This document shows positions 4,192 to 62,245 of a stretch of DNA of 64,000 bases, piece by piece. The notes under the pieces were generated by a model that saw nothing but the letters and a program-made list of their open reading frames with translations, did not search any database and was not told the DNA's origin. The position numbers were made by a program, and so were the translations under genes. Source of the DNA: Acetofilamentum sp. (lineage in GTDB: Bacteria > Bacteroidota > Bacteroidia > Bacteroidales > JAADGE01); NCBI GenBank assembly GCA_020720665.1, contig DYOF01000001.1:25950-89949 (forward strand). The letters are read 5' to 3'. The first letter of the stretch is position 1. Each line of letters opens with the position of its first letter.

Positions 4192-4226
4192 ATTAAAATT
4201 TTTAATAAAATCAGATAATCGTTAAA

Positions 4227-11584: not shown

Positions 11585-12699
11585 TGGAAAAAATTAAAGC
11601 AAATATTATAATCAGCGGTGGTGGTACCGGCGGACATATTTTTCCTGCCATATCTATTGCTCAAGCCCTTCAGCAAATCAGTCCGGATATAAAAATTCTG
11701 TTTGTAGGAGCAAAAGGCAAAATTGAAGAGAAAAAAGTTCCGGAAGCAGGGTTTGAAATTAAACTTATTGATATCAGAGGTTTTGAGAGAAAAATTTCAT
11801 TTGAAACCATTAAAAATATTTTTCGACTTTTTGTCAGCTATTTTAAATGCAGAAAAATTATAAAGCAATTTAAACCGGATGTTGTTGTAGGTGTGGGCGG
11901 ATATGCAAGCGGTCCGTTAGTTTATGCCGCCGTTAAAAAAGGAATACCGGCTTTAATTCAGGAACAAAATTCGTATCCGGGAATAACGAATAAAATTTTA
12001 TCTAAATCTGTCGATAAAATATGTGTGGCTTATGATCAGACAGAACGTTTTTTTCCTGCCGAAAAAATTGTTGTTACCGGAAATCCTGTCCGTAAAGATT
12101 TGACACAAATGAGTGTAACAAAAGAGGAAGTTCATAATTTTTTCGGTTTTGAAGAAGATAAAAAAGTTATTTTAAGCTTAGGAGGAAGCGGAGGTGCTAA
12201 AAGCATAAATGAAAGTATTAAGCAAAAAATTAATACCATATCACAAGCGAATATTTATTTTATATGGCAAACCGGAAAAACCTATTATGAAGAGTATAAT
12301 AATGCTGTTATTGAATCGGGGGCAAAAAACATTAAAGTGTATGATTTTATTTCAAGAATGGATTTGGCATTTAAAGCTGCCGATTTAGTAATTTCCAGAG
12401 CCGGAGCCGGTACAATATCTGAACTCGGGTGTTTGGCGAAAGCAACAATATTAGTTCCCTCACCCAATGTTGCAGAAGACCATCAAACTAAAAATGCAAC
12501 AGCTCTTGTAAATAAAAATGCGGCAATTTTGATTTCTGATAAGGATGCAAATGAAAAATTAGTTGATGAAGCCCTTCGTTTAATTTCAAATCAAGACAAA
12601 TTGAACGAATTATCAACAAATATTTTTAATGAAAAACTATCGGATTCTGATGTTAAAATTGCAGAGGAAGTTTTAAAACTAATAAAAAAGCAGAACTAA
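11584..12699 (+). CDS. murG: UDP-GlcNAc:lipid I N-acetylglucosaminyltransferase MurG
   Basis: SGGGTGGHIFPA N-terminal loop, GGSGGAKSIN and RAGAGTISE blocks. Its start overlaps the ftsW stop (TAATG). Confidence 0.9.
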   Translation: MEKIKANIIISGGGTGGHIFPAISIAQALQQISPDIKILFVGAKGKIEEKKVPEAGFEIKLIDIRGFERKISFETIKNIFRLFVSYFKCRKIIKQFKPDVVVGVGGYASGPLVYAAVKKGIPALIQEQNSYPGITNKILSKSVDKICVAYDQTERFFPAEKIVVTGNPVRKDLTQMSVTKEEVHNFFGFEEDKKVILSLGGSGGAKSINESIKQKINTISQANIYFIWQTGKTYYEEYNNAVIESGAKNIKVYDFISRMDLAFKAADLVISRAGAGTISELGCLAKATILVPSPNVAEDHQTKNATALVNKNAAILISDKDANEKLVDEALRLISNQDKLNELSTNIFNEKLSDSDVKIAEEVLKLIKKQN

Positions 12700-12702
12700 A
12701 AA

Positions 12703-26435: not shown

Positions 26436-26822
26436 TTACGCATTGAACATCAGATGTTTATTAATTGCAAATTCAATGTTTAGTTCTAAACTGGTTTTAT
26501 AAACCGGTTTGGTCATAAACCCGTATGTATTTTTTAAAACAGCTCGTTTAACTGTGTTAACATCACTGACGCCTGAGATATAAATAATCGGAATATTAAA
26601 ATTTTCAGATATGACTTTTGCAGTTTCAACACCGTCTATTTTACCTGATAAATGGATATCCATCAGAATTAAGTCAGGTTTTTTATTTTTACAAAGCTCC
26701 AAAGCTTCTTCACCCGAAGAAACCGTTCCGCAGTGTGAATAAGCTAACTCGTCAAGAAACATCTCAAAAACCGTACATAACATACTGTCATCTTCAACGA
26801 TTAATATTTTTGGTTTACTCAT
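26436..26822 (-). CDS. stand-alone response-regulator receiver (CheY-like)
   Basis: 128 aa with canonical REC residues: ILIVEDD, phospho-acceptor LILMDIHL, YISG, TKP. Confidence 0.85.
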   Translation of the reverse strand: MSKPKILIVEDDSMLCTVFEMFLDELAYSHCGTVSSGEEALELCKNKKPDLILMDIHLSGKIDGVETAKVISENFNIPIIYISGVSDVNTVKRAVLKNTYGFMTKPVYKTSLELNIEFAINKHLMFNA

Positions 26823-36368: not shown

Positions 36369-36376
36369 CAAATTTA
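36369..36376 (-). promoter_or_regulatory. candidate -7 promoter box (TAnnTTTG) for thiolase gene
   Basis: The minus strand reads TAAATTTG, 43 nt before the ATG at 36326. Confidence 0.3.
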
Positions 36377-36609
36377 ATAATTTATTTCTCGTTATGCAAA
36401 TTCATAATTATTAATAAACTGCCGGTTTAAAGAAAAAATATGTTTAACAATTATTATAATAATTAAACATCCTGACAGACACATTAATACAAGAATGTTC
36501 ATTTTTTATATATTTTATATTTTTTTCATTTTTTATATTTTTTTTATAAATTTACATTTTGGTATTCATTATTATTTAAAATTTTAACAAATTCTCTAAA
36601 ATAAAAGAT

Positions 36610-38481
36610 ATGTTTAAGTTCAAAATGTCATTAGGGGTAAAAATTTCGGTACCCATTATTTTAATAACAACTATACTAATGTTAACCTTGTTATTAATAA
36701 ACTATCAAAGAGTTAAAACACAACATCAAAAATCAATTGACAAATCTTTTGAAAATAAAATGAAAGATATCGACAATAACATCAAAAGAATACAAAATAA
36801 GGCTTTGTGGATAGCGTCAGTATGTTCAAATTTGGATATAGTAAAAAAATCGTATGCTGATTATTATGAAACAGGTGATATAGAGGGCAGTACAAAATCA
36901 CTTGCTAAACAAATGACCCAAATTAGCGAAGCTTTAAAAAGTTATACCGGTGTGCAAGATGCATCCATTCACTTTCACTTGCCGCCCGCTCTGTCTTTTT
37001 ATAGAAGCTTTTCCAAAAAAAAGGGTGATGATTTAAGCAGTTTCAGAAGCACTGTTTTAAAAATATCTGAAATTCACAAACCCGTTGAAGGTATTGAAGT
37101 AGGACGCGGTGGTTTTGTTATCAGAGGTATTGCACCCATATTCAGCGATAACGGACAATTCTACGGCTCCGTTGAAAATTTTTATTCTATTACGGAAATG
37201 GTTAAAGCGGCTAAACTTACAGATAATGAAGATTTTGCTGTTTTTATGAATACCTCATTGTTGAATATTGCTACTGATTTCTTTGAAGAAGGCACAACAA
37301 ATGTGAAAGCCGAAAATCCGATTATCGGAAATTTTATTTTTATCGAATCAACCGCTAAAAATTTTAATGTTAAAAATATTCAAGCCGAGCAATTAAATTC
37401 GGGAATAAAAGAAGTAACAAAATCTCGAACCGGAAATTTTTATTATGCCTATTTTCCGATTTATAATTTTGACAACAAAGCTGAAGGCGTTGGGGTTATA
37501 CAATTTGATATGTCAGAAGCAGAGGCATCAATAACGAATACAAGGTTAACAGTTTATATTTTAAGTATTGCCTTACCGATAGTTATCATCTTTTTGGTAC
37601 TCTTTTTAACAAGAATTTTCATAAGCAGACCAATTTCTACGGTTGTAAATGTTATGGATAAAATTGCAAATAGAGATATTCGTTCAAAAATTACTGCAAC
37701 CACTAATGATGAAATCGGTTATTTGTATCATTCGGTGAATAAAATTGCCGATAGTTATCAAGAAATTATTACAGAACTTACAGAAACTTCAAATACTATT
37801 TACGGAGCATGTGCTCAATTATCAGAAATTGCAGTAAATGTGCATTCAACGTCTGATACCCAATCGGCAACTACCGAGGGAATATCTTCATCAATAGAAG
37901 AAATTTTAGCAACGGTTGAATCAAACACAAAACGAGCAGAAATGACAGGAGAATCTGCAAACAAATCTGCTGCCGGAATTAAAGAAAACAATGCACTTTT
38001 TACACAAGCAATTAATTCTGTTTACGAAATTACTAAGAAAATTGCCATTATTTCTGAAATTGCATCAAAAACAGACATCCTGTCAATAAATGCCGCAATT
38101 GAAGCTGCACACGCCGGCGATACAGGAAAAGGATTTGCCGTTGTTGCCCAAGAAATCAGAAAATTAGCTGATAAAAGTAGAGATGCGGCATCCGATATTG
38201 AGAAAATATCAATAGAAAGTCAAGAAATTTCTAAAGATGCAAGAGAAAAACTTAACAGTATCGTACCGGAAATTGCTGAAAGTGCCGATTTAATTGACAG
38301 TATTGCTGTTGCGAGTAAAGAATTAATTATGAGTATTGAATTGATAAACACGTCTGTTTTAGAATTAGTAGGTTTCAGTCATACAAACACTGTTATCGCT
38401 GAAGAATTGTCTGTTTCTTCTGAAGAACTGCAAGCTCAGGCAGAAGCACTTAAAAATCAAATTTCTACATTTAAAATATAG
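36610..38481 (+). CDS. methyl-accepting chemotaxis protein with large Cache-like periplasmic domain
   Basis: TM1, a ~280-aa periplasmic region ([14 protein letters not shown]...[12 protein letters not shown]...[19 protein letters not shown], which resembles Cache_3/Cache_2-type sensors), TM2, HAMP and the signalling hairpin [38 protein letters not shown]. Confidence 0.9.
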
Positions 38482-38490
38482 ATTTATACC

Positions 38491-39294
38491 ATGATTGATA
38501 AAAAAGATTATTTCAAGCAAGTATTATCATTAGGCGATTTCTCTAAAATATCTTCATATATTGAAACAACATACGGAATACAATTGCCTAATAATAAATT
38601 AAACATGGTTCAAACACGTTTAATTAAACGATTAGCAGAAATTGAAAAACCGACATTTAAAGATTATATTGAGTATGTTTTTAGCACTTCGGGAAAAAAT
38701 GAATTACAAAATATGGTTGATGAAATTACAACTAACCGAACCGAATTTTTCAGAGAAATACAACATTTTGATTTTTTAAAAGAAAATTTTTCAGATAAAA
38801 AGGATAAAGTAAAAATTTGGAGTGCAGGATGCGCTTCGGGTGAAGAACCCTATTCAATAGCCATGTTATTACATCATCATAATATTGATTGTGAAATTTA
38901 TGCTTGCGATGTATCTGTAAAAGCATTAAATGAAGCACGAAACGGAGAATATCAGGAGCGTGAGGTTTCTCCTGTTCCCGAAGCGATGAGAACAAAATAT
39001 TTCACAAAAGTTCAAGACGGATATAAAGTAAACGAAAATATTAAAAAATTAATTAAATTTTATCATATCAACTTATTGGATAACACATATAATATTCCTA
39101 ATGATATTGATATTATATTTTTTCGAAATGTATCCATTTATTTCAGTAGCGCTAATCAAGATTCAACATTCATTAAAATGGCTTCATATTTAAAAAAAGA
39201 CGGTTATTTAATTATCGGAGTTTCTGAAAACATGTTTAATAAAGATTTACCTTTTAAAAAACTTAAATTTTCAATTTTTCAAAAAAGCGAATAA
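38491..39294 (+). CDS. cheR: chemotaxis protein methyltransferase CheR
   Basis: TEFFREIQHF and SAM-binding IWSAGCASGEEPYSIAMLL. It lies 9 bp after the MCP gene. Confidence 0.9.
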   Translation: MIDKKDYFKQVLSLGDFSKISSYIETTYGIQLPNNKLNMVQTRLIKRLAEIEKPTFKDYIEYVFSTSGKNELQNMVDEITTNRTEFFREIQHFDFLKENFSDKKDKVKIWSAGCASGEEPYSIAMLLHHHNIDCEIYACDVSVKALNEARNGEYQEREVSPVPEAMRTKYFTKVQDGYKVNENIKKLIKFYHINLLDNTYNIPNDIDIIFFRNVSIYFSSANQDSTFIKMASYLKKDGYLIIGVSENMFNKDLPFKKLKFSIFQKSE

Positions 39295-39323
39295 ATTGCA
39301 AATCATAAGCTTACAGATTTTTT

Positions 39324-40088
39324 ATGAAAAGAGTAGTTTTAGTAGGATTTCCTGACCAATATAATTTAAACATAACGAATAATATTCAAAATTCAGGGTG
39401 TTGTAATGAATTTACCAAAAAATATACGAATTTACAATTTTTCAGAGATTATAAAAATGAAAGTGCCGATATAATTTTTTTGGATTCATTTTCAAAAGAT
39501 TCAGAAATAACAGATGTAGCTAAAAAAATTAGGGCAATAGATTCAGAAGTTTTCATTGTAGGAATGTCTATGAGTTTTAATCCTATATTAAAAGAAACAT
39601 TTAAAAAAGAAATAACAAAATCTGATTTTATTTTAAAAACACAAGACAACAAAAATTATATAACACAATTATTGGAAGGAGAAACCCCCGGCACTTTTAA
39701 TGAAAATAAAAAACAAAAATCAAAAACCGCTTTAGTTGTTGATGATTTTTCGAACACATTAAATGTAATAAAATTCACTCTTGAAAAAAATAATATAAAT
39801 GTAATAACAGCCGGGAGCGGCGAAGAAGCACTAAAAATTTTAAACAAGCAAATCATACCCGATATTATTATAACAGATTTGAACATGCCCAAAATGGATG
39901 GTTTTGAATTGATTGAAAATATTAGAAAAATAAAAGAAATTGACAAGGTTCCTATTTTCATTTTAACAACTGATTTTAACTTCAATAAGAAACTAAAAGC
40001 TAAGCAACTAAATGTTACAGGCTGGATACAAAAACCATATAATTCCAATGATTTCATAAAAATTATCGGTAATGCATTAAAAAACTAA
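39324..40088 (+). CDS. two-domain response regulator: degenerate N-terminal receiver-like domain + canonical C-terminal receiver
   Basis: C-terminal REC: ALVVDDFSN, IIITDLNMPKMDG, FILTT, IQKP. The N-terminal ~120 aa has REC-like strand/helix spacing (RVVLVGFPDQ, IIFLDSF, FIVGMS) but lacks the DD acidic pair. Confidence 0.8.
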   Translation: MKRVVLVGFPDQYNLNITNNIQNSGCCNEFTKKYTNLQFFRDYKNESADIIFLDSFSKDSEITDVAKKIRAIDSEVFIVGMSMSFNPILKETFKKEITKSDFILKTQDNKNYITQLLEGETPGTFNENKKQKSKTALVVDDFSNTLNVIKFTLEKNNINVITAGSGEEALKILNKQIIPDIIITDLNMPKMDGFELIENIRKIKEIDKVPIFILTTDFNFNKKLKAKQLNVTGWIQKPYNSNDFIKIIGNALKN

Positions 40089-40101
40089 ACAAAGCAGACT
40101 T

Positions 40102-42135
40102 ATGTTTAATGAACAAAAAAAATTGTTTGTACAAGAAGTAACCGATTTGTTATTAAAAGTTGAAAAAGATTTACTTTTATTAGAAAATGACTCAACAAAC
40201 AATGACATTATTCAAGATATTTTCAGAGCCATGCACACCGTTAAAGGTTCAGCAGGGGTATATAATCTTGAAAAAACAGTTCTGCTTGCACATAATTTTG
40301 AGTCGCTTTTTGAAAACATCAGAAAACAAGAGTTAAAAGTTACTAATGAAATTATTACATTAACTCTTCAGGCAAATGATACATTACTAAGATTAATAAA
40401 TGCAGATACAGAAACTATTATTGACGACTCGGAAATTGAATATTTAATTTCCCAAATTAACAGTATTAAAGTTCAAATCACTTCCAAAGTCAGAACATCC
40501 GTTAATATTACAAATTTCAAAACCTTTTATATTTTTTTTGAACCCAATCTTGATATAGAAGAAAGAGGAATAGGAATTGACGGCATTATTAATGATTTTG
40601 CAGATTTTGAATATAAAACCATTTCTAAAAAAACTGACTTCGAGCGTAGGCAAAAAGGAAAACATGAAAAGTTTTTTGAAATAATTGTAAGTTCAACATA
40701 CACAGAAGACGAAATCAAAGCAGTTTTTCTTTTTGTACCCAATGAATATGAAATTATTGAAATAGCAAATTTTAATATTTTTGAAAAAACCGATTTCAAT
40801 GAGTTCTATTTCAGTGCGGTTGATATAGTCCCTGAAAAAGAACAACGAATTGAGTTGCTGAAAGATTTTTGTAATATATTTAAAGAACAAAGCCAATTTG
40901 AAGCTCTTCCGGAAGAAGCGAAATCGGATGCCGATGTATTAATCGGTGCGGAAGAAATTGAAAAAGACTCAAAGTCAGAAACGCAACAAATTGAACAAAT
41001 CAGAGTTCCGGCAAGCAAATTAGACGAATTACTGAGTTTAGTCAGCGAGTTGATTATCAATAATTCTCAATTAACTAAAAGTGCACTCAATAAAGACTAC
41101 GAAAAAATAACAATACTTTCTGAGAATATTTCAAAAATCACAAATACAATAAAAGAAAATACGCTCAGCCTTCGTTTAATTCCCGTTGAAAATATTATAC
41201 CTCCGTATAAACGCCTAATCAGAGACTTATCGCTTAAATTTAATAAAAAAATCTATTTTATTGCCGACGGTGTAGAAACCTTAGTAGATAAAAATATTAT
41301 AGAAAAATTATTTACACCGCTTTCACACATCATCAGAAATGCGATAGACCACGGCATTGAATTACCCGAAGAACGAATAAAAAAAGGAAAAGGAGAAACC
41401 GGAATCATCCGTTTTATTGCATTTTATTCAAGCACAAATGTATTTGTTCAAATTCAAGATGACGGAAGAGGAATAAACCCCGAAATCGTAAAAAATACCG
41501 CTATAAAAATGGGCTTAATCAAGCCGACAGATGAATTGACGAAAAAAGAAATTTATGATTTACTTTTTATTCAAGGATTTACAACTGCTAAAAATTTAAC
41601 AGAAATTTCCGGCAGAGGAATCGGCATGGATGCCATAAAAAAATCAATTCAAGATTTAAGAGGTGATGTAGAAATAGATTCAGAAGCGGAATTAGGCACA
41701 AGTGTTACGATTAAACTTCCCTTGACGCTTTCAATCATCGAATCAATGCATTTAACTGCCGGAAACTTAAATTTCTTAATCCCGATTTCAAATATAAATC
41801 AGTGTTTGAAGTTTAATTCGGAAGAAGTAAAAGAATTTGAAAAAAATAAAATCTTATTAAACAACGAGTTAATACCGATTATTAATATTTCAAAAGTTTT
41901 TAACCTAAAACACAATGAAGCACAAAATAATTTAATAATTGTTAATCACGGACAAACAAAAACAGGATTACTGTTTAATAACATCATCGGAGAATATCAG
42001 GCTGTTATTAAAAACTTAGGCTCTATTTTTCGAGAATATGACTTTTTTATCGGTGCCAGTATTTTATCTGACGGTTCAATAGGTTATATTCTTGATACCT
42101 ACAAATTAATTAATAAATTAACAACTGCAAAATAA
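40102..42135 (+). CDS. cheA: chemotaxis histidine kinase CheA
   Basis: Hpt FRAMHTVKGSAG, dimerisation region IRVPASKLDELLSLVSELII, HATPase N-box IIRNAIDHGIE, G-boxes QDDGRGI and SGRGIGMDAI, and a C-terminal CheW-like domain. No fused receiver. Confidence 0.9.
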   Translation: MFNEQKKLFVQEVTDLLLKVEKDLLLLENDSTNNDIIQDIFRAMHTVKGSAGVYNLEKTVLLAHNFESLFENIRKQELKVTNEIITLTLQANDTLLRLINADTETIIDDSEIEYLISQINSIKVQITSKVRTSVNITNFKTFYIFFEPNLDIEERGIGIDGIINDFADFEYKTISKKTDFERRQKGKHEKFFEIIVSSTYTEDEIKAVFLFVPNEYEIIEIANFNIFEKTDFNEFYFSAVDIVPEKEQRIELLKDFCNIFKEQSQFEALPEEAKSDADVLIGAEEIEKDSKSETQQIEQIRVPASKLDELLSLVSELIINNSQLTKSALNKDYEKITILSENISKITNTIKENTLSLRLIPVENIIPPYKRLIRDLSLKFNKKIYFIADGVETLVDKNIIEKLFTPLSHIIRNAIDHGIELPEERIKKGKGETGIIRFIAFYSSTNVFVQIQDDGRGINPEIVKNTAIKMGLIKPTDELTKKEIYDLLFIQGFTTAKNLTEISGRGIGMDAIKKSIQDLRGDVEIDSEAELGTSVTIKLPLTLSIIESMHLTAGNLNFLIPISNINQCLKFNSEEVKEFEKNKILLNNELIPIINISKVFNLKHNEAQNNLIIVNHGQTKTGLLFNNIIGEYQAVIKNLGSIFREYDFFIGASILSDGSIGYILDTYKLINKLTTAK

Positions 42136-42144
42136 AAAAATAAG

Positions 42145-42642
42145 ATGGCAAAAAAATCAAGCTATATACTCTTTAAATTAGGCAACGACACATTTGCAAT
42201 AGATGTACTAAATGTTATTCAAACCTTAGAAACCGAAGATTTAACCCCTCTGCCTAAAACCCCGGAATTTGTTAAAGGAATAATGATTTTCAGAGGAAAT
42301 ATATTACCGGTTATAGATTTGCGTTTAAAATTCAATATAAAAAATACACAAGAACTAAACAAAGGGTTTATTATTGTTACCAAATTTTTTAATAATGAAA
42401 AAGAACAAGAAATAGGTTTAATTGTTGATTCCGTTTTAGAAGTATCAGATTTTGACGCGTATGATATCGGCACTTATCCTGAAATAGGAAGCAAATACAA
42501 TCTTGAATTTATTAACGGATTTGTCAAACAAGACGATGAAATTATTACAGTTCTTAACATTGAAAACATTTTATCATCCGCAGAAATAGAAATTCTGAAA
42601 AAAAGTACTGAAAAAATTGAATTTGATATTGAAAATGAATAA
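42145..42642 (+). CDS. cheW: chemotaxis coupling protein CheW
   Basis: 165 aa. ILFKLGNDTFAIDVLNVIQ...VKGIMIFRGNILPVIDLRLKF...IGLIVDSVLEV. Confidence 0.9.
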   Translation: MAKKSSYILFKLGNDTFAIDVLNVIQTLETEDLTPLPKTPEFVKGIMIFRGNILPVIDLRLKFNIKNTQELNKGFIIVTKFFNNEKEQEIGLIVDSVLEVSDFDAYDIGTYPEIGSKYNLEFINGFVKQDDEIITVLNIENILSSAEIEILKKSTEKIEFDIENE

Positions 42643-42646
42643 TCCG

Positions 42647-43732
42647 ATGTCAGAAAAAATTAAAGTCTTACTTGTTGATGACTCTGAACATATCAGGCGT
42701 ACAATTCAATTATTATATAATGATGATGAAACAATTCAGGTCATAGCAGAAGCATCCGACCCTTTTGAAGCCGTTAAAGAAATTCAATTATTAAAACCGG
42801 ATGTACTCCTTTTAGATATTGAAATGCCCAAAATGAACGGTTTAGTATTTTTAAAAAATTTAATGACAAAAAATCCTATACCGGTTATTATATTTTCTGC
42901 GTTTGTAAACGAAGGCAGTGAAAATGCCCTAAAAGCATTTGAATACGGAGCAATTGACATAATAGAAAAACCTAAATTAAGCACTCCGGTTGAATTTAAT
43001 AAATATAAAAACAAATTAAGTGCAGCTCTACAAACTGCAAAAAATGCCAATGTTTCGCCTATTGATAACACAGAAAAAACATTTTTTAAAATTGAAGAAA
43101 AAACGGCATCAAAATTCGGCAGTTATTTCAGCCCGGAACATGAAGTCAGCTATATCATTGCAATAGGAGCATCAACCGGCGGAACCGAAGTTGTAAAATG
43201 GTTTCTGGACAGTATTCCGGAACAGTTTCCGCCGATTCTTATAGTGCAACATATGCCGGCCGGATTTACACAATCATTTGCAGAAAGACTAAACAATTCA
43301 TCAAAAATAGAAGTAAAAGAAGCTGAAGACAATGAACCCTTGAAAAACGGTTGTGCATACATCGCAAGAGGAGACAGACATTTAATATTGAACAAAGAAA
43401 ATAATAATTTTCAGATAATATTAAGTGATGCAGAACCGGTGAACAGACACAAACCGTCAGTTGATATTCTCTTTAACTCTGTTGCAGAACATTTTACAAC
43501 AAATTCAGTAGGTATAATTCTTACAGGAATGGGAACTGACGGAACCGAAGGATTAAAAAACATGAAAAATTCCGGAGCGTACACCATTGCTCAAGATGAA
43601 AATACCAGTATTGTGTTTGGAATGCCTAAATCTGCAATATTGGCAGGTGTTATTGATAATGTATTGCCTATTTACAAAATACCGGAAAATTTAATAAAGC
43701 TTGTTGAGAAATTTATAACAAAAGAAAAATAG
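42647..43732 (+). CDS. cheB: chemotaxis response regulator protein-glutamate methylesterase CheB
   Basis: REC (VLLVDDSE, LLLDIEMPKMNG) plus esterase (AIGASTGGTE, LIVQHMPAGFT, LTGMGTDG). ATG 42647 is preferred to the track start 42617, which overlaps cheW. Confidence 0.9.
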   Translation: MSEKIKVLLVDDSEHIRRTIQLLYNDDETIQVIAEASDPFEAVKEIQLLKPDVLLLDIEMPKMNGLVFLKNLMTKNPIPVIIFSAFVNEGSENALKAFEYGAIDIIEKPKLSTPVEFNKYKNKLSAALQTAKNANVSPIDNTEKTFFKIEEKTASKFGSYFSPEHEVSYIIAIGASTGGTEVVKWFLDSIPEQFPPILIVQHMPAGFTQSFAERLNNSSKIEVKEAEDNEPLKNGCAYIARGDRHLILNKENNNFQIILSDAEPVNRHKPSVDILFNSVAEHFTTNSVGIILTGMGTDGTEGLKNMKNSGAYTIAQDENTSIVFGMPKSAILAGVIDNVLPIYKIPENLIKLVEKFITKEK

Positions 43733-43824: not shown

Positions 43825-44007
43825 ATGGGACAAAAGTTAAAACAATATTTTGAAAAAGCAAAGGAAATAGGAGGCTTCAAAGCAGCAGGCAAATTAGCTC
43901 TTTTAACCAAAATACCGAGCATGTATGCAGAAGAAACGCCGGATAGCCCTGAAATGATTGAAAAATTTGAAAAAGCAATGGAACAAATAAGAAAAGAATT
44001 TTATTAG
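43825..44007 (+). CDS. hypothetical small protein
   Basis: 60-aa ORF that looks helical and charged. No family recognised. Coding status is uncertain. Confidence 0.3.
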   Translation: MGQKLKQYFEKAKEIGGFKAAGKLALLTKIPSMYAEETPDSPEMIEKFEKAMEQIRKEFY

Positions 44008-44080: not shown

Positions 44081-44608
44081 ATGAATGATAGTATAGAAAT
44101 AATTAAGTATATAACACCTCTGATAATTCTTATTGTTGCCGTTCTTTTAATCCTTAAACATTTTTCGGATAAAGAAAAGAACAATTCAAAATTTGAAATT
44201 ATCAGATCCAATAATAAAATACTTACCCCTATAAGGTTACAGGCTTATGAACGACTGACTTTGTTTTTAGAACGAATTAAACCCGATTCCTTAGCACTTA
44301 GGCTTTATAATTCAGATAACACCTCTAAACAAGCTCAAATGTTATTAACGGATAATGTTAAAAAAGAGTTTAACCATAACCTTTCACAACAGGTTTATAT
44401 ATCTGATGAATTATGGCAGGTAATTGTTAATGCAAAAGAACAATTAATACGAATAATTAATTTGACAGGAACGAAACCGGAAACACAATCAAGCTCGGCT
44501 GAATTTTCAAGAGTATTGATTGAAGTTTATAATGATTTAGAAAAAAAACCGATTGAAGATGCTTTGCTTCTGCTTAAAAAGGAAGCTTCATTATTCTTCG
44601 GCATGTAA
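44081..44608 (+). CDS. hypothetical membrane-anchored protein
   Basis: 175 aa with an N-terminal TM (ITPLIILIVAVLLIL); the remainder is helical. No family recognised. Confidence 0.4.
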   Translation: MNDSIEIIKYITPLIILIVAVLLILKHFSDKEKNNSKFEIIRSNNKILTPIRLQAYERLTLFLERIKPDSLALRLYNSDNTSKQAQMLLTDNVKKEFNHNLSQQVYISDELWQVIVNAKEQLIRIINLTGTKPETQSSSAEFSRVLIEVYNDLEKKPIEDALLLLKKEASLFFGM

Positions 44609-45711: not shown

Positions 45712-48700
45712 ATGAATATTTTTCAAAACATAAGTATCCGCACCAGATTTAATTTCATTACAATTTTTGTAATAATTTTAATATCATTTATTATACTGTT
45801 TTTTACGTATTCTATTAATAAAGTAAACCGATATAATGAATACAATGAAAATATCAACAATCTAAAAATTCATTATTTGAATATACGAAGATACGAACAA
45901 CATTTTATTTCAAGATACCATGAAGACGCTAATTTTTTTATTTCCGGTGAAAACACATATATTCAGAAATTAAACTCAGAAGCTGTTGCAGCATCAAAAA
46001 TAATAACTGAACTTAAAAAAAGCACCATTTCAAATAAATTAAAATTAATTGAAAACATAAATAAGCTCGAAGCAATACTTCAAAATTACATCCTTTCATT
46101 CAATAATTTAACCCAAAAAATATACAAACGCGGTTCCTTAAACGGCGGTATTTTATATGAGTTAAAAATTTCCGCCGAAAAACTTGATAATCTATACGGA
46201 GTTCCGGGTTCGGCAATATCAAAAATGACAAATTATTCTGAAAAATATATGTATTCGTTTGATGAAAAATATTTTGAATTATTTTTAAAAGAATACGGAA
46301 AATTGTCAAACCTTTCAAATCCGGAAACCCTGACGGTTCCGGAAAATTCAATTACCGCCGATAAGCATATAAACGAATTTAAAAACATTTTTACTGCATT
46401 AGCAGGGATTAATAAAGAAATTGGAGTTTCATATAACGACGGAATAAAAGGTCAGTTAAGAAACATGGAATTTTCGGCTTTAGATATTATTGTAAATATC
46501 GTAAACGAAAATAAATATACAACCGAACGAATTTCAAAACGTAATATTTTTATATTCTTCGGACTGATAACCCTTATATTTTTGTATCTTTTTTGGCGAT
46601 TTTCAAATTCTATAGTTGAACCTCTTACCAAATTAAAAGAATACATTTATCCTTTAAGTAAAGGTAGTTTACCAAAAGTTATTTACAAATCAGAAGGGAA
46701 AAATGAAATTTCTGACATTAGTGAAAACCTAAACAGTTTAGTACAAGGTTTAAAACAAACAACAGAATTTGCTTTGTCAATCGGACGAGGGAAATATTCA
46801 ATTGACTATACACCATTAAGTAAAGAAGATTCGCTTGGAAATGCTTTACTTGAAATGAGAAGTAATTTAATTATTGCGAGAGACGAAGAACAAAAAAGAA
46901 AAGAGGAAGATGAAATTCGTTCATGGACAAACGTAGGGCTGACAAAATTCAACGATATATTAAGACAAAATCAAGGAAATATTAACGAAATGTCCATTGC
47001 TGTTATTTCTGAATTGGTTAAATTTATTAATGCAAACCAAGGCGGAATGTTTGTTTTTAATGACGATGAGGAAAACAAATATTTAGAATTAACGGCAGCT
47101 TATGCCTATGGTCATGAGAAGAAAAAACAAAAACATATCTACCTCGGAGAAGGGCTTGTAGGAACTGTTGCCGTTGAAAAAGAAACGATTTATATGACGG
47201 ACATTCCGGAATCGTACATAACAATTTCTTCCGGCTTAGGAGGCTCATCTCCTCGAAGTTTATTAATTGTTCCTATGACTGTAGAGGATGAAGTTATCGG
47301 CGTTGTGGAATTGGCATCATTCAATTTGTTAAAAACATATGAAATTGAATTTGTTGAAAATCTTTCGAAAAATATTGCCTCATCTCTTTCAATTACCAGA
47401 ATTAACCAACGAACAGCGTTCTTATTTGAACAATCTCAGCGTCAGGCTGAGTTAATGAAAGTGCAAGAAGAAGAAATGCGTCAAAATTTTGAAGAATTAC
47501 AGCAAGTTCAAGAAGAATCATCCAGAAACGCTGCCGAAATGAGCAGCATTTTAGATGCAATTGACTCATCATCATCAATATTTAACATTGATTCGAACGG
47601 AATTATCGAATCCGTAAATCAACAATTTCTTATGCTTACTAACATACCGGAAGATAAACTTGTCGGCGAATATCATAAAAATATATTCCATTTTACGGAA
47701 GATGAATATAAAGAATTCTGGAACATGTTGCTTGCCGGTGAAAATATTCAAAAAATTGAATACTTAAAAATTGATGAAAATGAAATTTGGCTTTCGGTTG
47801 TTTATCGTCCGATTATGGATAATAACGGTAAAATTCGCTATATTTTCTCGGTAGGAATAAATTTAACAGAATCAAAAGAATTAGAAAACCAACTTAAAGA
47901 AAAACTTATACTATTAGAAGAGGCTCAAAAAGAAGCTGAAAGAAAACAACATATTCTGGAAAACACTAACGAAATGTTAATTGCTAATGAAAGAACCTTA
48001 CAATCAGCCATTGAAAACGCAATGAAACAACGAAAGGAATTAGCAAAAAAAATGGAAGAAATTGCAGAAGAAGAAGCAATAACAGGCAGTCGATTAGAAG
48101 GAATAAACCAAACTAACATTTCCTTTAATTTTGATTTAGAAGGAAATATCTTTTCATCCAACAAAATTTTTAATACACTATTCGGTTTTAATGAAAATGA
48201 TGTCATCGGTACAAATATATCATCAATACTTACAGAAAACTTTTTAAATACAAAAGCCTATGAAGATTTGTGGGAAAAATTAAAAAACGGAAAACATCAT
48301 AACGGGACATTTAATTTTAAAAGTTCCGACAATAAAAAAATATTCATTCAAGGAACGTTTACAGCTATTAAAGACAGACGAGGAAAAACAACAAGTGTCT
48401 TTTTTATCGGATTTGACATAAGCGATTTAGCCAGGAAAACTGAAGAATTGACAGCCCGAGAAACAGAATTATTTTTCCAAATTGAAGATATGCAAAAAAT
48501 GCAAAATCTAATGGTAAAACAAGAAGCCGAACTTATTGCCGGTTCAAAGGAACTTGCAGAAAAAGAAGCTGTTTCAAAAAGCCGTTTAGAAGGAATCAAC
48601 CAAACAAACATTATTGCCGAGTTCAGTATTGACGGCATAATAACTGATGTCAATGAAAATTTTATAAACACATTCGGATATCAAAAAGACGAAATATTAT

Positions 48701-49020
48701 CAAAAAATCAAGAGATATTATTTTCTGAAAAAGTTATTGAAACTAAAATATACAAACAATTACTCGAAGATATTCAAAACGGTAAGCACGTATCAGGAAC
48801 ATTTAATTTTATAGGAAAAAACAAAAACAAAATATTTATTCAAGGAACCTTTACAATTATTAAAGACTCATCAAATAATATAAATAAAATTATTCTGATG
48901 GGATTTGACACAACGGATTTAGTTATGAGAACAGAAGAATTAAAAGCAAGAGAAACTGAAATGTTTTTTAAATTACAAGAGTTAGAAATTTTACAAGAAA
49001 AATTAAAAAATAAAAAATAA
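45712..49020 (+). CDS. membrane sensor protein: TM - periplasmic helical domain - TM - HAMP - GAF - coiled coils - three PAS modules, no recognisable output domain
   Basis: 1102 aa. TM1 [21 protein letters not shown]2 [17 protein letters not shown]. GAF core [23 protein letters not shown]...[32 protein letters not shown]...[10 protein letters not shown]. Coiled coil [18 protein letters not shown]. Three PAS-like modules. I see no HisKA H-box, HATPase N/G boxes, GGDEF, EAL or MA domain. Confidence 0.8.
   Translation: [1102 protein letters not shown]
48091..49017 (+). repeat. intragenic tandem duplication of a PAS + coiled-coil module (period 492 bp)
   Basis: Anchor cgattagaaggaataaaccaaactaacatt (48091) matches cgtttagaaggaatcaaccaaacaaacatt (48583). 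The peptides [11 protein letters not shown]..., GKH..GTFNF....[14 protein letters not shown] and TEEL.ARETE.FF recur in register. Confidence 0.8.
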
Positions 49021-49158: not shown

Positions 49159-50454
49159 ATGGAAACAAGAAACAAATTAAAAAAACTGTGCTTAGTAGCT
49201 TTAATTTTAATAACAACCCTAAATTACAGTCTTGCCGGCTCATTAATAAGCGGTTTAAATGTCATAAATTCTGATGATTACATCGTTATTGAAGGAAAAG
49301 TTATCGATTCAAAAACACAAAAACCGATTATTTTTGCAACAGTATCTGCAGTCGGAACAAACATCGGAACAATAACAAATACCGAAGGAATGTTCTCAAT
49401 AAATATTGAAAAAAATTTAAACGTAAAACAGCTTAGTTTTAGTTATATAGGGTATGTAAAACAGCTCGTTAACATTTCCGATTTGCCTAAAACTGATTTA
49501 ATAGTTAAATTAGAATCGTATGCTGTTCCTATTGAAGAAGTCATTGTTCATCCGAACAACCCTCGAGAACTGATTATTGAGATTTTAAGAAAAATTCCGG
49601 AAAATTACAGTAACACACCAAATAAAATGATGGCATTTTACAGAGAAACCATTTCAAAGAAAAGAAAATATGTTTCAATATCAGAAGCTGTTGTTGAAAT
49701 ATATAAAGCCCCTTACAATCAGAACATTAGTGAAGATTTAGTTAAACTCTATAAAGGCAGAAAAAGTGCCGATGTTAAAACTCAAGATACAGTAATAATG
49801 AAATTAAAAGGCGGACCGAGTACAGCTCTGTTATTAGATATTGCAAAAAACCCCGATTTGATTTTTTCAAAAGAAAATATTGATGATTATAAATTTGAAA
49901 TTACTGAAATTACCGGTATAAATAATAAACAAAATTATGTGATAAATTTTACGCAAATTAAAAACAATGACTATCCGCTGTTCAACGGCAAATTGTATGT
50001 AGAAATTAATTCACTTGCAATTACAGCGGCAGAGTTTAGCCTTAATCTGGATAATGAAAGAGCCGCAGCCGCCTTATTTATAAAAAAGAAGCCATTATTA
50101 ATGTCAATTGTTCCGACTTCTACAACATACTTTGTTAAATATAAAGAAGATAACGGCAAATATTACTTCTCACATGCAAGAGGCGAAGTCAGTTTTAAAT
50201 GCAATTGGAAAGCGAAAGTTTTTAATTCAAAATACACTGTAATGACTGAAATTGCAATTACGGATAAATCGGATAAAGATGCGGTTAAATTTAACAAGAA
50301 TGAACAATTAAGAGCCGGAATAATTTTCGAAGACAAAGTAAGACCCTACCAAGATGAAGACTTCTGGGGTAAATACAACACAATTAAACCTGAAGAATCT
50401 ATCGAAAATGCCATTAAAAAATACGGTGTTATTTTAAAAATTCAAACCAATTAG
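49159..50454 (+). CDS. secreted CarboxypepD_reg-like domain protein with unassigned ~300-aa C-terminal domain
   Basis: Signal peptide. CarboxypepD_reg pattern IEGKVIDSKTQKPIIFATVSAVGTNIGTITNTEGMFSI. The C-terminal region is paralogous to that of 52038-53549. Confidence 0.65.
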   Translation: METRNKLKKLCLVALILITTLNYSLAGSLISGLNVINSDDYIVIEGKVIDSKTQKPIIFATVSAVGTNIGTITNTEGMFSINIEKNLNVKQLSFSYIGYVKQLVNISDLPKTDLIVKLESYAVPIEEVIVHPNNPRELIIEILRKIPENYSNTPNKMMAFYRETISKKRKYVSISEAVVEIYKAPYNQNISEDLVKLYKGRKSADVKTQDTVIMKLKGGPSTALLLDIAKNPDLIFSKENIDDYKFEITEITGINNKQNYVINFTQIKNNDYPLFNGKLYVEINSLAITAAEFSLNLDNERAAAALFIKKKPLLMSIVPTSTTYFVKYKEDNGKYYFSHARGEVSFKCNWKAKVFNSKYTVMTEIAITDKSDKDAVKFNKNEQLRAGIIFEDKVRPYQDEDFWGKYNTIKPEESIENAIKKYGVILKIQTN

Positions 50455-50513: not shown

Positions 50514-51077
50514 TTGTCTTATATTTATATACCGAATTTTAATTCGTTCAAATTGGAAAATACGAGTATAAATAATTTAAACATAAAAAATTTCGAGTTC
50601 ATTTTTAAAAAACATTATAAAGAGCTGTGTTATTTTGCATTAAAATTTACTAAAAATGAAGAAGAAGCTGAAGAAGTCGTTCAAGATGTATTTTATAAAA
50701 TTTGGGAAAAACGCAAATTCATAAACATTAAAATTTCTGTAAAATCATACTTATACATGTCTGTCAGAAATAAATGCATACAGAACATTAATCACAATAA
50801 ATTAATTAAATTATACGAAAGTCAAATTCAAGAAAACGAAAATAATGAATGCGAATTACCCGATGATTTTATAATTTACAATGAAAGCATTAAAATTTTT
50901 AATGAAGCGTTAAACACACTCCCTGAAAATTGTGTAGAAATATTTAAAATGAGCCGATTTGAAGGATTAAAATACAAAGAAATAGCTGAACGCTTAGCAA
51001 TTTCAATAAAAACAGTTGAAGCAAATATTAGTAAAGCATTAAAAACATTCAGAATTTATTTTCCTGAATATACATAA
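50514..51077 (+). CDS. ECF-type RNA polymerase sigma-70 family factor
   Basis: Region 2 EEAEEVVQDVFYKIWEKR and region 4 HTH LKYKEIAERLAISIKTVEANISKAL. There is no in-frame ATG near the 5' end. The track start is TTG 50514 and an alternative TTG is at 50553, so the start is uncertain. Confidence 0.85.
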   Translation: MSYIYIPNFNSFKLENTSINNLNIKNFEFIFKKHYKELCYFALKFTKNEEEAEEVVQDVFYKIWEKRKFINIKISVKSYLYMSVRNKCIQNINHNKLIKLYESQIQENENNECELPDDFIIYNESIKIFNEALNTLPENCVEIFKMSRFEGLKYKEIAERLAISIKTVEANISKALKTFRIYFPEYT

Positions 51078-51086
51078 TCTAAAGCC

Positions 51087-52022
51087 ATGTTAAACAAAGA
51101 ATACGATATACTGAATAAATTCATCAACGGTACACTTGATGACAAAACCCGAATAATAACTTCAGAAATGATTAATAAAAATTATCAAAATTCTGACATT
51201 GAAACTAATTCTGATGAAACTAAGTTCAATCCGGAAAATGCATGGATGAAACTTCAAAACAAAATTGATAAAGAATCTAATTCCGGATTCACCACATTCA
51301 AATCGGTTTCAAAAATAAGAATTGCAGCAAGTATTATAATTGTTATCGGAATAATGCTCACCGGAATTCTATTGCTGAATCCCTTCGCAACTGTAAAATA
51401 TGCTCAAATAAAAACAGGAAATGAAATTAAAGAACTTAAACTCTCAGACGGTTCTGTTATAACATTAAACAGAAACTCCGTACTTAAATATCCTGAAACA
51501 TTTGCATCTGAAAAAAGAGAAATTGAATTCAGCGGAGAAGCATATTTTGAAATTGCAAAAAACCCTCAAAAACCGTTTATAATAAAAACTAACGATGCAG
51601 AAATTAAAGTTTTAGGAACTTCTTTCAATGTACGCTCAGAACAGAAAAATGAAGTAATAGTAAATGTTAACTCGGGGAAAGTACAACTTGTTAACAAAAA
51701 TAATGAAAGCCTTGTTTTAACAAAAAATGAAACCGGAAAAATTGAAAACAACACCCTAACAAAAAATATAAATTCAGATTTGAATTATTCGGCATGGAAA
51801 ACGAAACATTTTATTTATGAAAATGTAAAATTAAATACGGTTATTAATGATTTAAATAGGGTTTATCAAACAAATATTGTTTTTAAAAATCTTGATATCG
51901 GTGAAATAAAAATAACAACTGAATTTGTTAATAAACCTATTGATTCAGTTATTGAAATTATATGCGTATCTCAAAATTTAAAATACAAACAATCAGAAGA
52001 AACAACAGTTATATATAAATAA
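51087..52022 (+). CDS. FecR-family anti-sigma factor
   Basis: Cytoplasmic N-terminus, single TM (IRIAASIIIVIGIMLTGILLL), FecR domain (LSDGSVITLNRNSVLKYP, GEAYFEIAKN, IKVLGTSFNVRS) and a C-terminal VINDLNRVYQTNIVF-type domain. Confidence 0.85.
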   Translation: MLNKEYDILNKFINGTLDDKTRIITSEMINKNYQNSDIETNSDETKFNPENAWMKLQNKIDKESNSGFTTFKSVSKIRIAASIIIVIGIMLTGILLLNPFATVKYAQIKTGNEIKELKLSDGSVITLNRNSVLKYPETFASEKREIEFSGEAYFEIAKNPQKPFIIKTNDAEIKVLGTSFNVRSEQKNEVIVNVNSGKVQLVNKNNESLVLTKNETGKIENNTLTKNINSDLNYSAWKTKHFIYENVKLNTVINDLNRVYQTNIVFKNLDIGEIKITTEFVNKPIDSVIEIICVSQNLKYKQSEETTVIYK

Positions 52023-52037
52023 CAATACATTTTTAAT

Positions 52038-53549
52038 ATGAAGATTTATATACTTGCAATAATTTTATGCATTATAGGTATTCGCTATAGCAATTCTCAA
52101 TCTTCAGTTTTAGAAAAAAAAATTAATCTTCAATTAAAAAACAATACGGCAAGTGATATTTTTAAAAAAATAACAGAAAAAACAAACTATTACTTTACTT
52201 ACAACTCTGAAATTATTAATCAAAATAAATATTTGACTTATAATTTTAAAAATGTTTCAATTAAAGAAATTTTAGACATTTCTTTATCTGACACGTCATT
52301 AATTTATAAAGTAGTTGATAATCATATTGTGATATGCAAAAACAGAAAACAATTCAAACCCGCTGATTATCAAGAAACTAAAATTAAAATCAACGGAAAA
52401 ATTTCAGAAGCCGATACAAAAAAAAACCTTCCTTTTGTTTCTGTCGGCATTTTAAATTCAACCATCGGAACGGTTACAAATGAATCAGGCAATTTTACAC
52501 TCCAAATAGACTCTGTTTATATCGATTCAACCCTATATGTAATTCATTTAGGATATAAATCTGTAAAAATACCGGTTAGGGAAGCTTCTGAGAAAGAGAT
52601 TAATAACATTATTCTCCAAGCAGAATATTTACCTATACAAGAAGTAATAATTCGAATAAATGACCCTATTTTTTTGTTAAAAAAAGCACTTGAACATACA
52701 CAAAATAATTATTTTCAAAAACCGACTGTTTTGTCTGCATTTTATAGAGAAGGGGTTTATAAAAAAGAAACAATTCTTAATTTTTCGGAGGCTTTAATTA
52801 CAATTTATAAATCACCCTATAAATCATCCTTAATTACTGATAAAATTAAAATCGAAAAATCAAGAAAAATCAGAAATGTAGAGAAATCTGACTCCCTTAT
52901 TATTAAATTAAAAGACGGTTTATACTCCGGTTTGGAATTGGATATTATTAAAAACCCCGTTGATTTTCTCAATTCAGAAAATTTACAATATTATAAATAT
53001 CACTTAACCGATTTGACTGTTTATGACGGCAAATTGGTTTATGCTATTGATTTTGAGCAAATTGGAGGTTTGGAGGATGCACTTTTCAAAGGGCGTTTCT
53101 ATATTGAAACAGAAACATTTGCCATAATAGCTGCTGAATTTGAACTTAATTTAAAAGAGGGAAATAAGCGACCCGAATTTGTAGTTAAAAAAAATAAAAA
53201 ATATTCTGTAGAACCTATTTCGGCAAAATATTCGATAAACTATCGACCCGTAAACAAAAAATATATTTTAAATCATGTAAGAGCAGATTTAGAAATGAAA
53301 ATAAAACGTAAAAAAGAATTATTTCCTACAAAATACAGAACATTTTTTGAAACCGTTATATTTGATATCGACACCATCCGTACAGAAAAATTTGAATCCG
53401 AAGAAGTTGTAAAAAAAAATCTGGTTTTTGTTGATTATCAGTATATTTATGACTCAGAATTTTGGGGAAACGAAAATTTCATAAAACCTGACGAATCATT
53501 AAAAGAAGCATTAAAGCGACTCAAAGTAAAACTTATTTTATCTGAATAA
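52038..53549 (+). CDS. secreted STN-like + CarboxypepD_reg-like protein lacking TonB-dependent plug/barrel; C-terminus paralogous to 49159-50454
   Basis: Signal peptide. STN-like N-terminal extension (INLQLKNNTASDIFKKITEKTNYYFTYNSEII...FKNVSIKEILDISLSDTSLIYKVVDNHIVI). CarboxypepD_reg (INGKISEADTKKNLPFVSVGILNSTIGTVTNESGNFTL). Then ~300 aa sharing FYRE, IYK.PY, KLK.G, AI.AAEF.LNL and FWG....IKP.ES motifs with the upstream paralog. Confidence 0.65.
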   Translation: MKIYILAIILCIIGIRYSNSQSSVLEKKINLQLKNNTASDIFKKITEKTNYYFTYNSEIINQNKYLTYNFKNVSIKEILDISLSDTSLIYKVVDNHIVICKNRKQFKPADYQETKIKINGKISEADTKKNLPFVSVGILNSTIGTVTNESGNFTLQIDSVYIDSTLYVIHLGYKSVKIPVREASEKEINNIILQAEYLPIQEVIIRINDPIFLLKKALEHTQNNYFQKPTVLSAFYREGVYKKETILNFSEALITIYKSPYKSSLITDKIKIEKSRKIRNVEKSDSLIIKLKDGLYSGLELDIIKNPVDFLNSENLQYYKYHLTDLTVYDGKLVYAIDFEQIGGLEDALFKGRFYIETETFAIIAAEFELNLKEGNKRPEFVVKKNKKYSVEPISAKYSINYRPVNKKYILNHVRADLEMKIKRKKELFPTKYRTFFETVIFDIDTIRTEKFESEEVVKKNLVFVDYQYIYDSEFWGNENFIKPDESLKEALKRLKVKLILSE

Positions 53550-59678: not shown

Positions 59679-60146
59679 CTACCAAACCATACAAACTCCC
59701 AGTTTATAATTTGAGGCATAATATCCCATTTCCGAAAAAAATCCGAAATTTGAATTTTTAAATACGTACCTAAATCCTAAAAAGATGTCGGGGTGAAATA
59801 AATATTTTTCAGTCGGTGCAGTAGCAACTCCTACTCCGGAATAAATATCTAAAACCTTGGTTCTGAAAAAACCGGCATGGTAAATAATACGTAACGTTCC
59901 GGAAGCATCAATATCCGATTCTAAAAATAACAAATCTGAGGTTAAACCGACACCGATATAACCCAATTTTCTGATTTGAAATACTGAACGTTCATAACTA
60001 AAATTCGCACCGTATGCTTCTAATCCTATTGTTCTGTATCCGCCTCCTAAATGTAAGGCATTATTTCCTTTTCTGAAAACGTCTTGAGAAAAAGAAAACT
60101 GAACCGTAAACAAAATGAGTATAACCGCTAAAACATTTTTCAACAT
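59679..60146 (-). CDS. small secreted protein, probable outer-membrane beta-barrel
   Basis: Signal peptide, alternating beta-strand pattern and an aromatic C-terminal residue (…GVCMVW). Confidence 0.4.
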   Translation of the reverse strand: MLKNVLAVILILFTVQFSFSQDVFRKGNNALHLGGGYRTIGLEAYGANFSYERSVFQIRKLGYIGVGLTSDLLFLESDIDASGTLRIIYHAGFFRTKVLDIYSGVGVATAPTEKYLFHPDIFLGFRYVFKNSNFGFFSEMGYYASNYKLGVCMVW

Positions 60147-60295
60147 AACATTTGCTGTTTAATTAATTCTACATGTATTAAACTGTAAAAATAATATTTT
60201 TTTTCTTTTAAAACTTCTTTCAAAATTCATTTTAATCATAAGTTTATTTTAATTTAGTTTTCATCTTCGCTGTTTGATACAATTTAAAAATATTT

Positions 60296-60303
60296 TACCT
60301 TTG
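60296..60303 (+). promoter_or_regulatory. candidate -7 promoter box (TAnnTTTG)
   Basis: TACCTTTG, 26 nt before the ATG at 60329. Confidence 0.35.
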
Positions 60304-62158: not shown

Positions 62159-62245
62159 ATAAGGAATTTCAAGCATTTTATAATAGCATTGTTTTTGCTA
62201 AATATCTGAATTTTATTTATTTTTGCTTATCATTAAAAAAGAGTT

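Follow-up and report, generated by a model that had tools for sequence, protein, structure and literature searches.

Receptors of the 34H length class have been tied to chemosensory (Che) systems of class F8 (PMC11253619, PMC9321776, PMC7184735), among them cluster II of Pseudomonas syringae pv. tomato with its CheY1/CheA1 pair and receptor PSPTO_0912 (PMC11253619). The Frz pathway of Myxococcus xanthus, which acts on gliding reversals, has a dual CheY-like protein, FrzZ, as its output, as related by a citing paper (Inclan 2007, cited in PMC6952110). For the Bacteroidota, a phylum that generally lacks flagella (García-López et al., PMC6767994), two genome papers mention cheA/B/R/W/Y in passing, for an oral Bacteroidales metagenome-assembled genome (MAG) and for Sediminibacterium (PMC6275135, PMC9258536). 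Here we analyzed a 64,000-nucleotide stretch of contig DYOF01000001.1 (hereafter the window), which carries a six-gene che operon at positions 36610-43732. In an uncultured Bacteroidales-like bacterium, this operon probably encodes a working chemosensory pathway that is complete in itself and belongs to the F7/F8 lineage, being F8-like and having a 34H receptor, and its output would run through a protein made of two receiver domains in tandem.

The six open reading frames (ORFs) all lie on the + strand and encode a methyl-accepting chemoreceptor (MCP; 36610..38481; 623 aa, 618 aa in other assemblies), the methyltransferase CheR (38491..39294; 267 aa), the tandem-receiver output protein (39324..40088; 254 aa), the histidine kinase CheA (40102..42135; 677 aa), the coupling protein CheW (42145..42642; 165 aa), and the methylesterase CheB with an N-terminal receiver (42617..43732; 371 aa from a TTG start, or 365 aa from the ATG at 42635, the start called in other assemblies). 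Intergenic gaps are 9, 29, 13, and 9 nt, and cheW overlaps cheB by 26 nt if the TTG start of cheB is used or by 8 nt if the ATG is. Together these genes form a complete excitation and adaptation set with intact catalytic motifs. The initial annotation had proposed just such a set of six co-directional genes, in the order MCP, CheR, receiver, CheA, CheW, CheB, and the ORF coordinates, Pfam and NCBIfam matches, and motifs bear this out, CheR, CheB, and all core parts having intact residues.

By their scores, the Pfam and motif matches of the six Che proteins are far beyond chance. The MCP matched MCPsignal (PF00015, 9.5e-29), dCache_3 (3.2e-13), and HAMP (5e-6), and its translation and transmembrane (TM) windows placed an ~280-aa periplasmic domain between two TM helices, giving the order TM1, periplasmic dCache_3, TM2, HAMP, and a 34H-length signaling hairpin without a C-terminal tail or pentapeptide. 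When the hairpin was aligned to the structures of Tsr and TM1143, it proved symmetrically shorter than that of Escherichia coli Tsr (36H), by 7 residues in the N-arm and 7 in the C-arm; because of this deficit in each arm we take the receptor to be of 34H length, a class read from length and not from heptad-class hidden Markov models (HMMs). Its C-terminus corresponds to Tsr residue 517, and the EE pairs E430/E431, E598/E599, and E604/E605 align with Tsr methylation sites 3-5. CheR matched CheR (2.7e-55) and CheR_N and has the S-adenosylmethionine-binding motif AGCASGEEPYS, and CheW matched its own family (5.9e-31). CheA matched Hpt, H-kinase_dim, HATPase_c, and CheW-like domains and no receiver domain, in the layout P1 (H45), P2 region, P3, P4, P5; its single Hpt domain holds H45 within MHTVKGSAG, the N, G1, F, and G2 boxes are present, and invariant alignment columns and two NCBIfam models (7e-103 and 3e-97, below their equivalog cut-offs) give the same identification. 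The Pfam and motif evidence thus agrees with the initial reading of a CheA with an HTVKGSAG Hpt domain, a kinase core, a CheW-like P5, and no fused receiver. CheB matched CheB_methylest (8.8e-66), Response_reg (4.6e-22), and the NCBIfam model PRK00742 (414.6 bits against a curated cut-off of 293), and has the receiver residues D21/D22/D67/K118 and the catalytic triad S186/H212/D308.

The product of the third ORF had been annotated as a receiver protein. That description suits the one Response_reg domain called by Pfam (residues 137-248, 1.7e-25) and missed the lineage-specific tandem arrangement, which we recognized by alignment, AlphaFold2 (AF2) modeling, Foldseek, and profile search. The C-terminal receiver (residues 135-253) retains D140, D141, D185 (in TDLNMPKMDG), T215, and K237, with W234 at the position of the aromatic switch (Tyr106), so that in both residues and fold a CheY-like phospho-acceptor pocket is present. 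Foldseek placed it close to CheY structures overall, at a root-mean-square deviation (rmsd) of 1.0-1.7 Å: Vibrio cholerae CheY4 was closest (35% identity, rmsd 1.0 Å), and E. coli CheY was at ~1.6 Å.

The N-terminal domain (residues 1-120) gave a faint Pfam receiver match (E = 0.16). In the AF2 model of the full-length protein (predicted local distance difference test [pLDDT] 89.5), it forms a second (beta-alpha)5 domain, joined to the C-terminal receiver by a disordered linker (residues 123-131); modeled alone, it reached a pLDDT of 92.5 and a predicted template-modeling score of 0.87. All of its top Foldseek matches were receivers (template-modeling scores 0.72-0.79), and a profile search against solved structures matched MrkE (1.2e-6), an archaeal CheY (1.3e-6), and Thermotoga maritima CheY (1.1e-5) over nearly the full length. 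By model, fold matches, and profile, then, the N-terminal 120 residues are a receiver. In the profile matches to solved receivers, D54 falls on the phospho-acceptor and K105 on the conserved lysine, and D11, D54, and K105 are invariant in the alignment of relatives; the same alignment lacks the first acidic residue and the conserved Thr/Ser. Because the former are kept and the latter lost, the domain would be a degenerate receiver that serves as an adaptor or else a second acceptor of atypical kind. The full-length model also aligned over both domains, in 256-280 columns, to PleD (PDB 1w25) and to the two-receiver structures 3mf4 and 3luf, where likewise an active receiver is paired with a degenerate one. 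In PleD, however, the phosphorylatable receiver is N-terminal and the pair is followed by a GGDEF effector, whereas in the window protein the canonical receiver holds the C-terminal position and no effector domain is present.

The tandem arrangement is rare. About 23 full-length relatives of 255-276 aa were found in a collection of 5.8 billion proteins, and a phmmer search with the N-domain against 1.84 billion representatives returned only 4 clusters, all of 257-269 aa and of the same architecture. Because a single architecture in so few clusters was recovered, the N-domain is, as far as these searches reach, an addition confined to a narrow lineage and in every case joined to a CheY-like receiver, and the protein as a whole appears to be a new, narrowly distributed variant of CheY. 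A metagenome scan with the alignment of the tandem receiver, in which generic receiver motifs prevailed, listed L087 and L088 alone as relatives over the full length.

To place the system among chemosensory classes, whose definitions (the scheme of Wuichet and Zhulin) were taken from secondary sources, receptor length and the CheA tree were considered together. Among the matches listed, the best CheA matches outside the Bacteroidota include Pseudomonas, Zestomonas, and Devosia, whose clusters have the order CheY, CheA, (CheW), MCP, CheW, CheR, CheB and whose MCPs show no net length difference from that of the window; MCPs of E. coli-type and Pseudoalteromonas-type loci are 14 residues longer, that is, 36H. 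In a rough neighbor-joining (NJ) tree of 98 CheA sequences from loci that we fetched (numbered with an L), the window CheA fell in a Bacteroidota-only clade with those of L004, L007, L008, L016, L054, L084, L086-L088, and L167-L170. L004, L008, and L087 offered no co-clustered MCP for measurement; in each of the other loci of this clade, one or more lay within a residue of the window MCP in length. The clade stood beside a large proteobacterial group with 34H-length MCPs and apart from the 36H-associated and the Firmicute/Thermotogae/archaeal groups. Receptor length and tree position together argue for a system that is F8-like or a sister of F8.

Compared with P. syringae cluster II, the window operon shares a cluster-encoded, two-TM 34H receptor, a CheA with P1-P5 and no receiver, CheW, CheR, and CheB, and a response regulator without an effector; CheD accompanies some relatives of the window operon. 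It differs in gene order (MCP, CheR, response regulator, CheA, CheW, CheB), in the separate clade of its CheA, in the extra, degenerate N-terminal receiver of its response regulator, in a host phylum generally without flagella, and in an MCP without the C-terminal pentapeptide reported for PSPTO_0912 (PMC11253619).

Two other classes were considered and rejected. Systems of the alternative cellular function (ACF) class typically have a CheA fused to a receiver, a response regulator whose output is enzymatic or DNA-binding, or both, and usually one dedicated receptor. Here CheA has no receiver, the response regulator has no effector, and relatives have 1-4 receptors, so ACF was rejected on architecture, the class being formally set by phylogeny and HMMs. 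The type IV pili (Tfp) class is marked by a CheA of the ChpA type, which combines multiple Hpt domains with a receiver, by PilG/PilH/PilJ, and by pil genes nearby; the window CheA has a single Hpt domain and no receiver, and neither the window nor the flanks read contained a pil gene. The earlier proposal of an "alternative cellular function" or gliding-linked pathway is therefore kept in one respect, a non-flagellar output being likely, and given up as regards class, since an ACF- or Tfp-like architecture is absent and the features point to an F8-like system.

At least 6 related MAG loci share the core of CheR, tandem receiver, CheA, CheW, and CheB, accompanied by 1-4 MCPs, and their CheA identities to the window are 57% (L167 and L169), 54% (L084/L085 and L168), 40% (L086), and 37% (L170). 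Carriers of the tandem receiver include the assemblies GCA_016938685.1, GCA_054034695.1, GCA_054003615.1, GCA_054002795.1, and GCA_054011555.1. The MCPs of these loci are of several types (dCache_3, dCache_2/sCache_2, PDC_1, and cytoplasmic), CheD is encoded in some loci, and the flanks all differ (Mfd, PMSR, a ribosomal operon, a serpin). A kept core, varied MCPs, and variable flanks would therefore reflect selection on a self-contained module, and the pattern indicates one fed by several inputs, as is typical of taxis systems. Two variations within the group were observed. In L086 the CheB (12487-13485) is receiver-less (332 aa, methylesterase only), and an MCP gene lies between those for the response regulator and CheA; in L084, a gene for a SpoIIE/PP2C protein adjoins the Che cluster.

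Beyond the tandem-receiver loci, homologous Che clusters are annotated in Sporocytophaga myxococcoides, Labilibacter sediminis, and Plebeiibacterium marinum, and in many Bacteroidales and Cytophagales MAGs. The initial annotation started from the premise that well-studied gliding Bacteroidota are not known to have Che genes; as these clusters show, Che systems are not foreign to the phylum, and the view of the operon as undescribed fails too, since such clusters are already annotated and only the tandem receiver is a new variant. The operon itself is an ordinary, already annotated type of gene cluster. The Sporocytophaga, Labilibacter, Plebeiibacterium, Paludibacter-labeled, and Bacteroidales MAG clusters resemble it in phylum, MCP length, and CheA clade (33-37% identity) and differ in having a single-domain CheY and the order CheY, CheA, CheW, (MCP), CheR, (HATPase_c, CheD), CheB. 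In the distant clusters L004, L007, L008, L016, and L024, a single-domain CheY lies directly 5' of CheA. L004 and L016 further differ from the window by added genes: they encode a HATPase_c protein (305-325 aa), CheD, and, directly 3' of cheB, a 760-aa GAF/PAS protein, each also has one extra single-domain receiver, and L016 encodes a STAS (anti-sigma antagonist-like) protein as well (HATPase_c, receiver, and STAS genes at L004 13493-14470 and 16183-16545 and at L016 7069-7446, 9294-9599, and 15374-16291).

We propose the following mechanism. The periplasmic dCache_3 domain of the MCP would bind a small ligand, and the signal would pass through HAMP and the 34H hairpin to control CheA in a CheW-coupled array. 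CheA would autophosphorylate at H45 and donate phosphate to D185 of the C-terminal receiver of the tandem protein and to D67 of CheB, and CheR and CheB would adapt the MCP by methylation and demethylation at the EE pairs equivalent to Tsr sites 3-5. The output protein, encoded with the Che cluster, has two receivers and no effector domain; for want of the latter, it would have to act by binding another protein. The N-domain would most likely be a docking, adaptor, or dimerization module, a phosphate sink, or a second phosphate acceptor, as may be compared with the second receiver of PleD or with M. xanthus FrzZ. We infer ligand modulation of CheA, phosphate donation by CheA~P, and resetting by CheR and CheB from established Che biochemistry; the paths of phosphotransfer, what the N-domain does, the lack of flagella, and what the target is are likewise inferred.

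By architecture, FrzZ is the closest functional analogy of the tandem-receiver CheY: both are stand-alone Che outputs with two receivers and no effector, in bacteria that move, or in our case would move, without flagella. They differ in that the N-domain of the window protein is degenerate, lacking the conserved Thr/Ser and the first acidic residue, and the pathways differ in that FrzE is a CheA-CheY hybrid and FrzCD a cytoplasmic receptor, whereas the window has a receiver-less CheA and a transmembrane dCache MCP.

Since the host phylum generally lacks flagella, the target of the pathway is likely, though unproven, to be non-flagellar. As to what that target might be, we tentatively favor taxis-type control of surface motility, by gliding or a type IX secretion system (T9SS) motor, because receptors are multiple and varied in the clade, adaptation is complete, and the output is an effector-less receiver like CheY, PilG, and FrzZ. 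A more specific form of this idea, in which the tandem receiver couples the F8-like array to the gliding/T9SS motor (e.g., GldJ, GldL, GldM, or a polarity factor) and controls reversals, as a FrzZ-like solution that evolved independently, is a rather unlikely conjecture.

Control of a trait other than motility (biofilm or exopolysaccharide, aggregation, stress, or sigma-factor partner switching), as in ACF and ancestral F7 systems, is nearly as likely as control of surface motility and is a serious possibility in its own right. It stays so because distant relatives have genes for partner switching and because mutants of the P. syringae F8 system are pleiotropic, its components having effects on biofilm and virulence as well as cross-talk with WspR (PMC11253619). 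The STAS, HATPase_c, extra-receiver, and PAS/GAF genes of L004 and L016 suggest, by analogy, a partner-switching output like that of ancestral F7 systems, for which clusters with anti-sigma antagonists have been described (PMC7184735); the SpoIIE/PP2C protein beside the L084 cluster would fit as well, and so would the window gene 2 kb downstream of the operon, whose product is homologous to the cluster-linked PAS/GAF protein. The window operon, however, has no STAS, anti-sigma, PP2C, GGDEF, or DNA-binding component, the SpoIIE and PAS/GAF neighbors are not conserved within the tandem-receiver clade, and clusters with several MCPs, different sensors, and full adaptation are more typical of taxis.

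Ordinary flagellar chemotaxis, with a flagellar regulon elsewhere in the genome and a C-terminal receiver that binds the flagellar switch, is improbable. The C-domain is very CheY-like, with its TDLNMPKMDG motif, W234 at the Tyr106 position, and V. cholerae CheY4 and E. coli CheY as close structures, and F-class systems usually serve flagella. Against this, by Pfam and NCBIfam the window yielded no flagellar, Mot, pilus, or gld/spr gene, and the adjoining flanks that were read (~3 kb at the high end, ~10 kb at the low end) yielded none of the flagellar, Mot, pilus, or gld kinds, which upholds, and extends to the ~77 kb read, the initial observation that the window has no flagellar, motor, or pilus gene. 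Nor was a flagellar or mot gene found in the 10-kb flanks of six related tandem-receiver loci, and the output protein has an extra N-terminal domain that flagellar CheYs lack.

The lineage of the host bears on the flagellar explanation in both directions. CheA and the receiver protein have their nearest named relatives in Bacteroidales or Bacteroidota MAGs, a phylum generally without flagella (PMC6767994). For FtsK, the nearest named relative is a "Bacteroidales bacterium" (75% identity), followed by three "Chlorobi bacterium" MAGs (68-71%) and then by Bacteroidota, Bacteroidia, and Salinivirgaceae MAGs (~55%); Ignavibacteria-type lineages are flagellated (PMC3362086), and in that respect the Chlorobi labels favor a flagellar role. 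The window also carries a LolA1_Flavo match (NCBIfam, 185.6 bits against a cut-off of 100), genes for extracytoplasmic function (ECF) sigma, FecR_C, and CarbopepD_reg_2 proteins, and 11 occurrences of the Bacteroidota promoter pattern TTTG-N17-21-TAnnTTTG where 5.9 were expected. These features, with the relatives of FtsK, CheA, and the receiver, bear out the Bacteroidota context first proposed, and the host is probably an uncultured low-GC Bacteroidota lineage, within the Bacteroidales as GTDB defines them.

That the operon is a decaying, nonfunctional relic of horizontal transfer is very improbable: self-contained clusters with flanks that vary between genomes fit mobility, and F-class clusters are known to move by horizontal gene transfer (PMC9239204), but the ORFs have intact catalytic motifs and no frameshift or internal stop, their GC content (~0.30) is that of the surroundings, CheA is 99-100% identical on contigs of several separate assemblies and samples (the identical sequence being present in the NCBI MAG GCA_020719425.1 and two Logan assemblies), and the core is kept across the clade at 37-57% CheA identity, with invariant functional residues in the tandem receiver.

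Several points weigh against an F8-like pathway that works through a tandem receiver on a non-flagellar target. The system was assigned to F8 by the length of its receptor and by a rough NJ tree rather than by class HMMs, and in that tree the Bacteroidota CheA clade is separate from the proteobacterial 34H group. In the tandem receiver, the N-domain lacks two of the expected positions, as described above, and an hhalign comparison of the N-domain with the C-domain gave a probability of 2.8%, which is too weak to argue for or against. Beside the cluster, the related tandem-receiver loci have no output or target gene in common, the motility-gene screen covers only ~77 kb of the genome, and in the searchable literature we found passing annotation mentions only and no functional study of any Bacteroidota Che system. 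The Chlorobi labels on FtsK relatives leave the exact class of the host uncertain, and the Bacteroidota in the sense of GTDB include flagellated classes such as Ignavibacteria.

With respect to operon expression, a candidate Bacteroidota-type -7 promoter element, TACATTTTG (36553..36561, + strand), was read from the sequence ~50 nt 5' of the MCP start codon; it is weak, with one mismatch to TAnnTTTG. Exact matches to the full pattern lie directly 5' of gene starts at 2252-2282 (-), 36369-36400 (-), 60273-60303 (+), and 62194-62225 (+). In a scan of the AT-rich che region for sigma-70 promoters and terminators, the counts equaled those of shuffled sequence and so carry no information, and Rfam and tRNA scans of the window gave no matches.

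Of the window genes outside the operon, four were considered as parts of the pathway. A PAS/GAF protein of 1102 aa (45712-49020, +) begins with a TM-bounded sensor region and has HAMP, GAF, and three PAS domains, but an output domain was not recognizable; its gene lies 2 kb 3' of cheB. Soluble homologues of 759-761 aa are encoded in L004 (16558-18843) and L016 (18103-20382), at 33-37% identity (E ~1e-65), and the protein may be an accessory sensor of Bacteroidota Che systems. It was not counted as part of the operon, as an opposite-strand gene lies between and the homologue is absent from other tandem-receiver loci. Just 3' of cheB lie a 60-aa ORF (43825-44007, +), which other assemblies of this species annotate as a gene, and a gene for a DUF7935 protein that has a TM helix at its N-terminus (44081-44608, +); both were rejected, neither being kept beside the cluster in related loci. 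A stand-alone receiver of 128 aa (26436-26822, -), encoded between LolA1 and YidD, is 32% identical to the CheY-like domain of the operon; since among solved structures it matched best a GGDEF protein's receiver (8e-24) and not a CheY, it was rejected as a genuine CheY.

Elsewhere, the window encodes a dcw cell-division cluster, TonB, TPR, and OmpA-like proteins, LolA1, FtsK, MltG, arginine deiminase, Obg, thiolase, DUF7935, mannose-6-phosphate isomerase, the PAS/GAF protein, the ECF/FecR/CarbopepD_reg set, and metabolic genes. A JGI contig of 154,825 bp carries the window gene at 356-1273 and the adjacent dcw genes. At 50514-53549 (+), genes for an ECF sigma factor and a FecR anti-sigma factor accompany one for a 503-aa STN plus CarbopepD_reg protein, which has no plug or barrel match and may be a transducer of the SusC/TonB-dependent type in truncated or atypical form; another CarbopepD_reg protein is encoded at 49159-50454. 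L171, from a variant strain of this species, has at 1171-7358 two genes 5' of the homologue of window 59679-60146, one for a 994-aa HEAT-repeat protein and one for a 1065-aa Y_Y_Y plus SpoIIE (PP2C) protein, where the window carries other genes.

The existence of the operon will not surprise a specialist; what the analysis makes testable is the output of Che systems in a flagellum-less phylum. How movement is steered in gliding, non-flagellated Bacteroidota is a standing question, for which the Bacteroidota CheA clade and its tandem receiver supply concrete proteins to test. If the output proves unrelated to motility, the locus would be one more instance of an F7/F8-lineage array put to another use in a phylum without flagella. 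If the tandem receiver does couple to gliding, a Che pathway would for the first time be linked at the molecular level to gliding in Bacteroidota.

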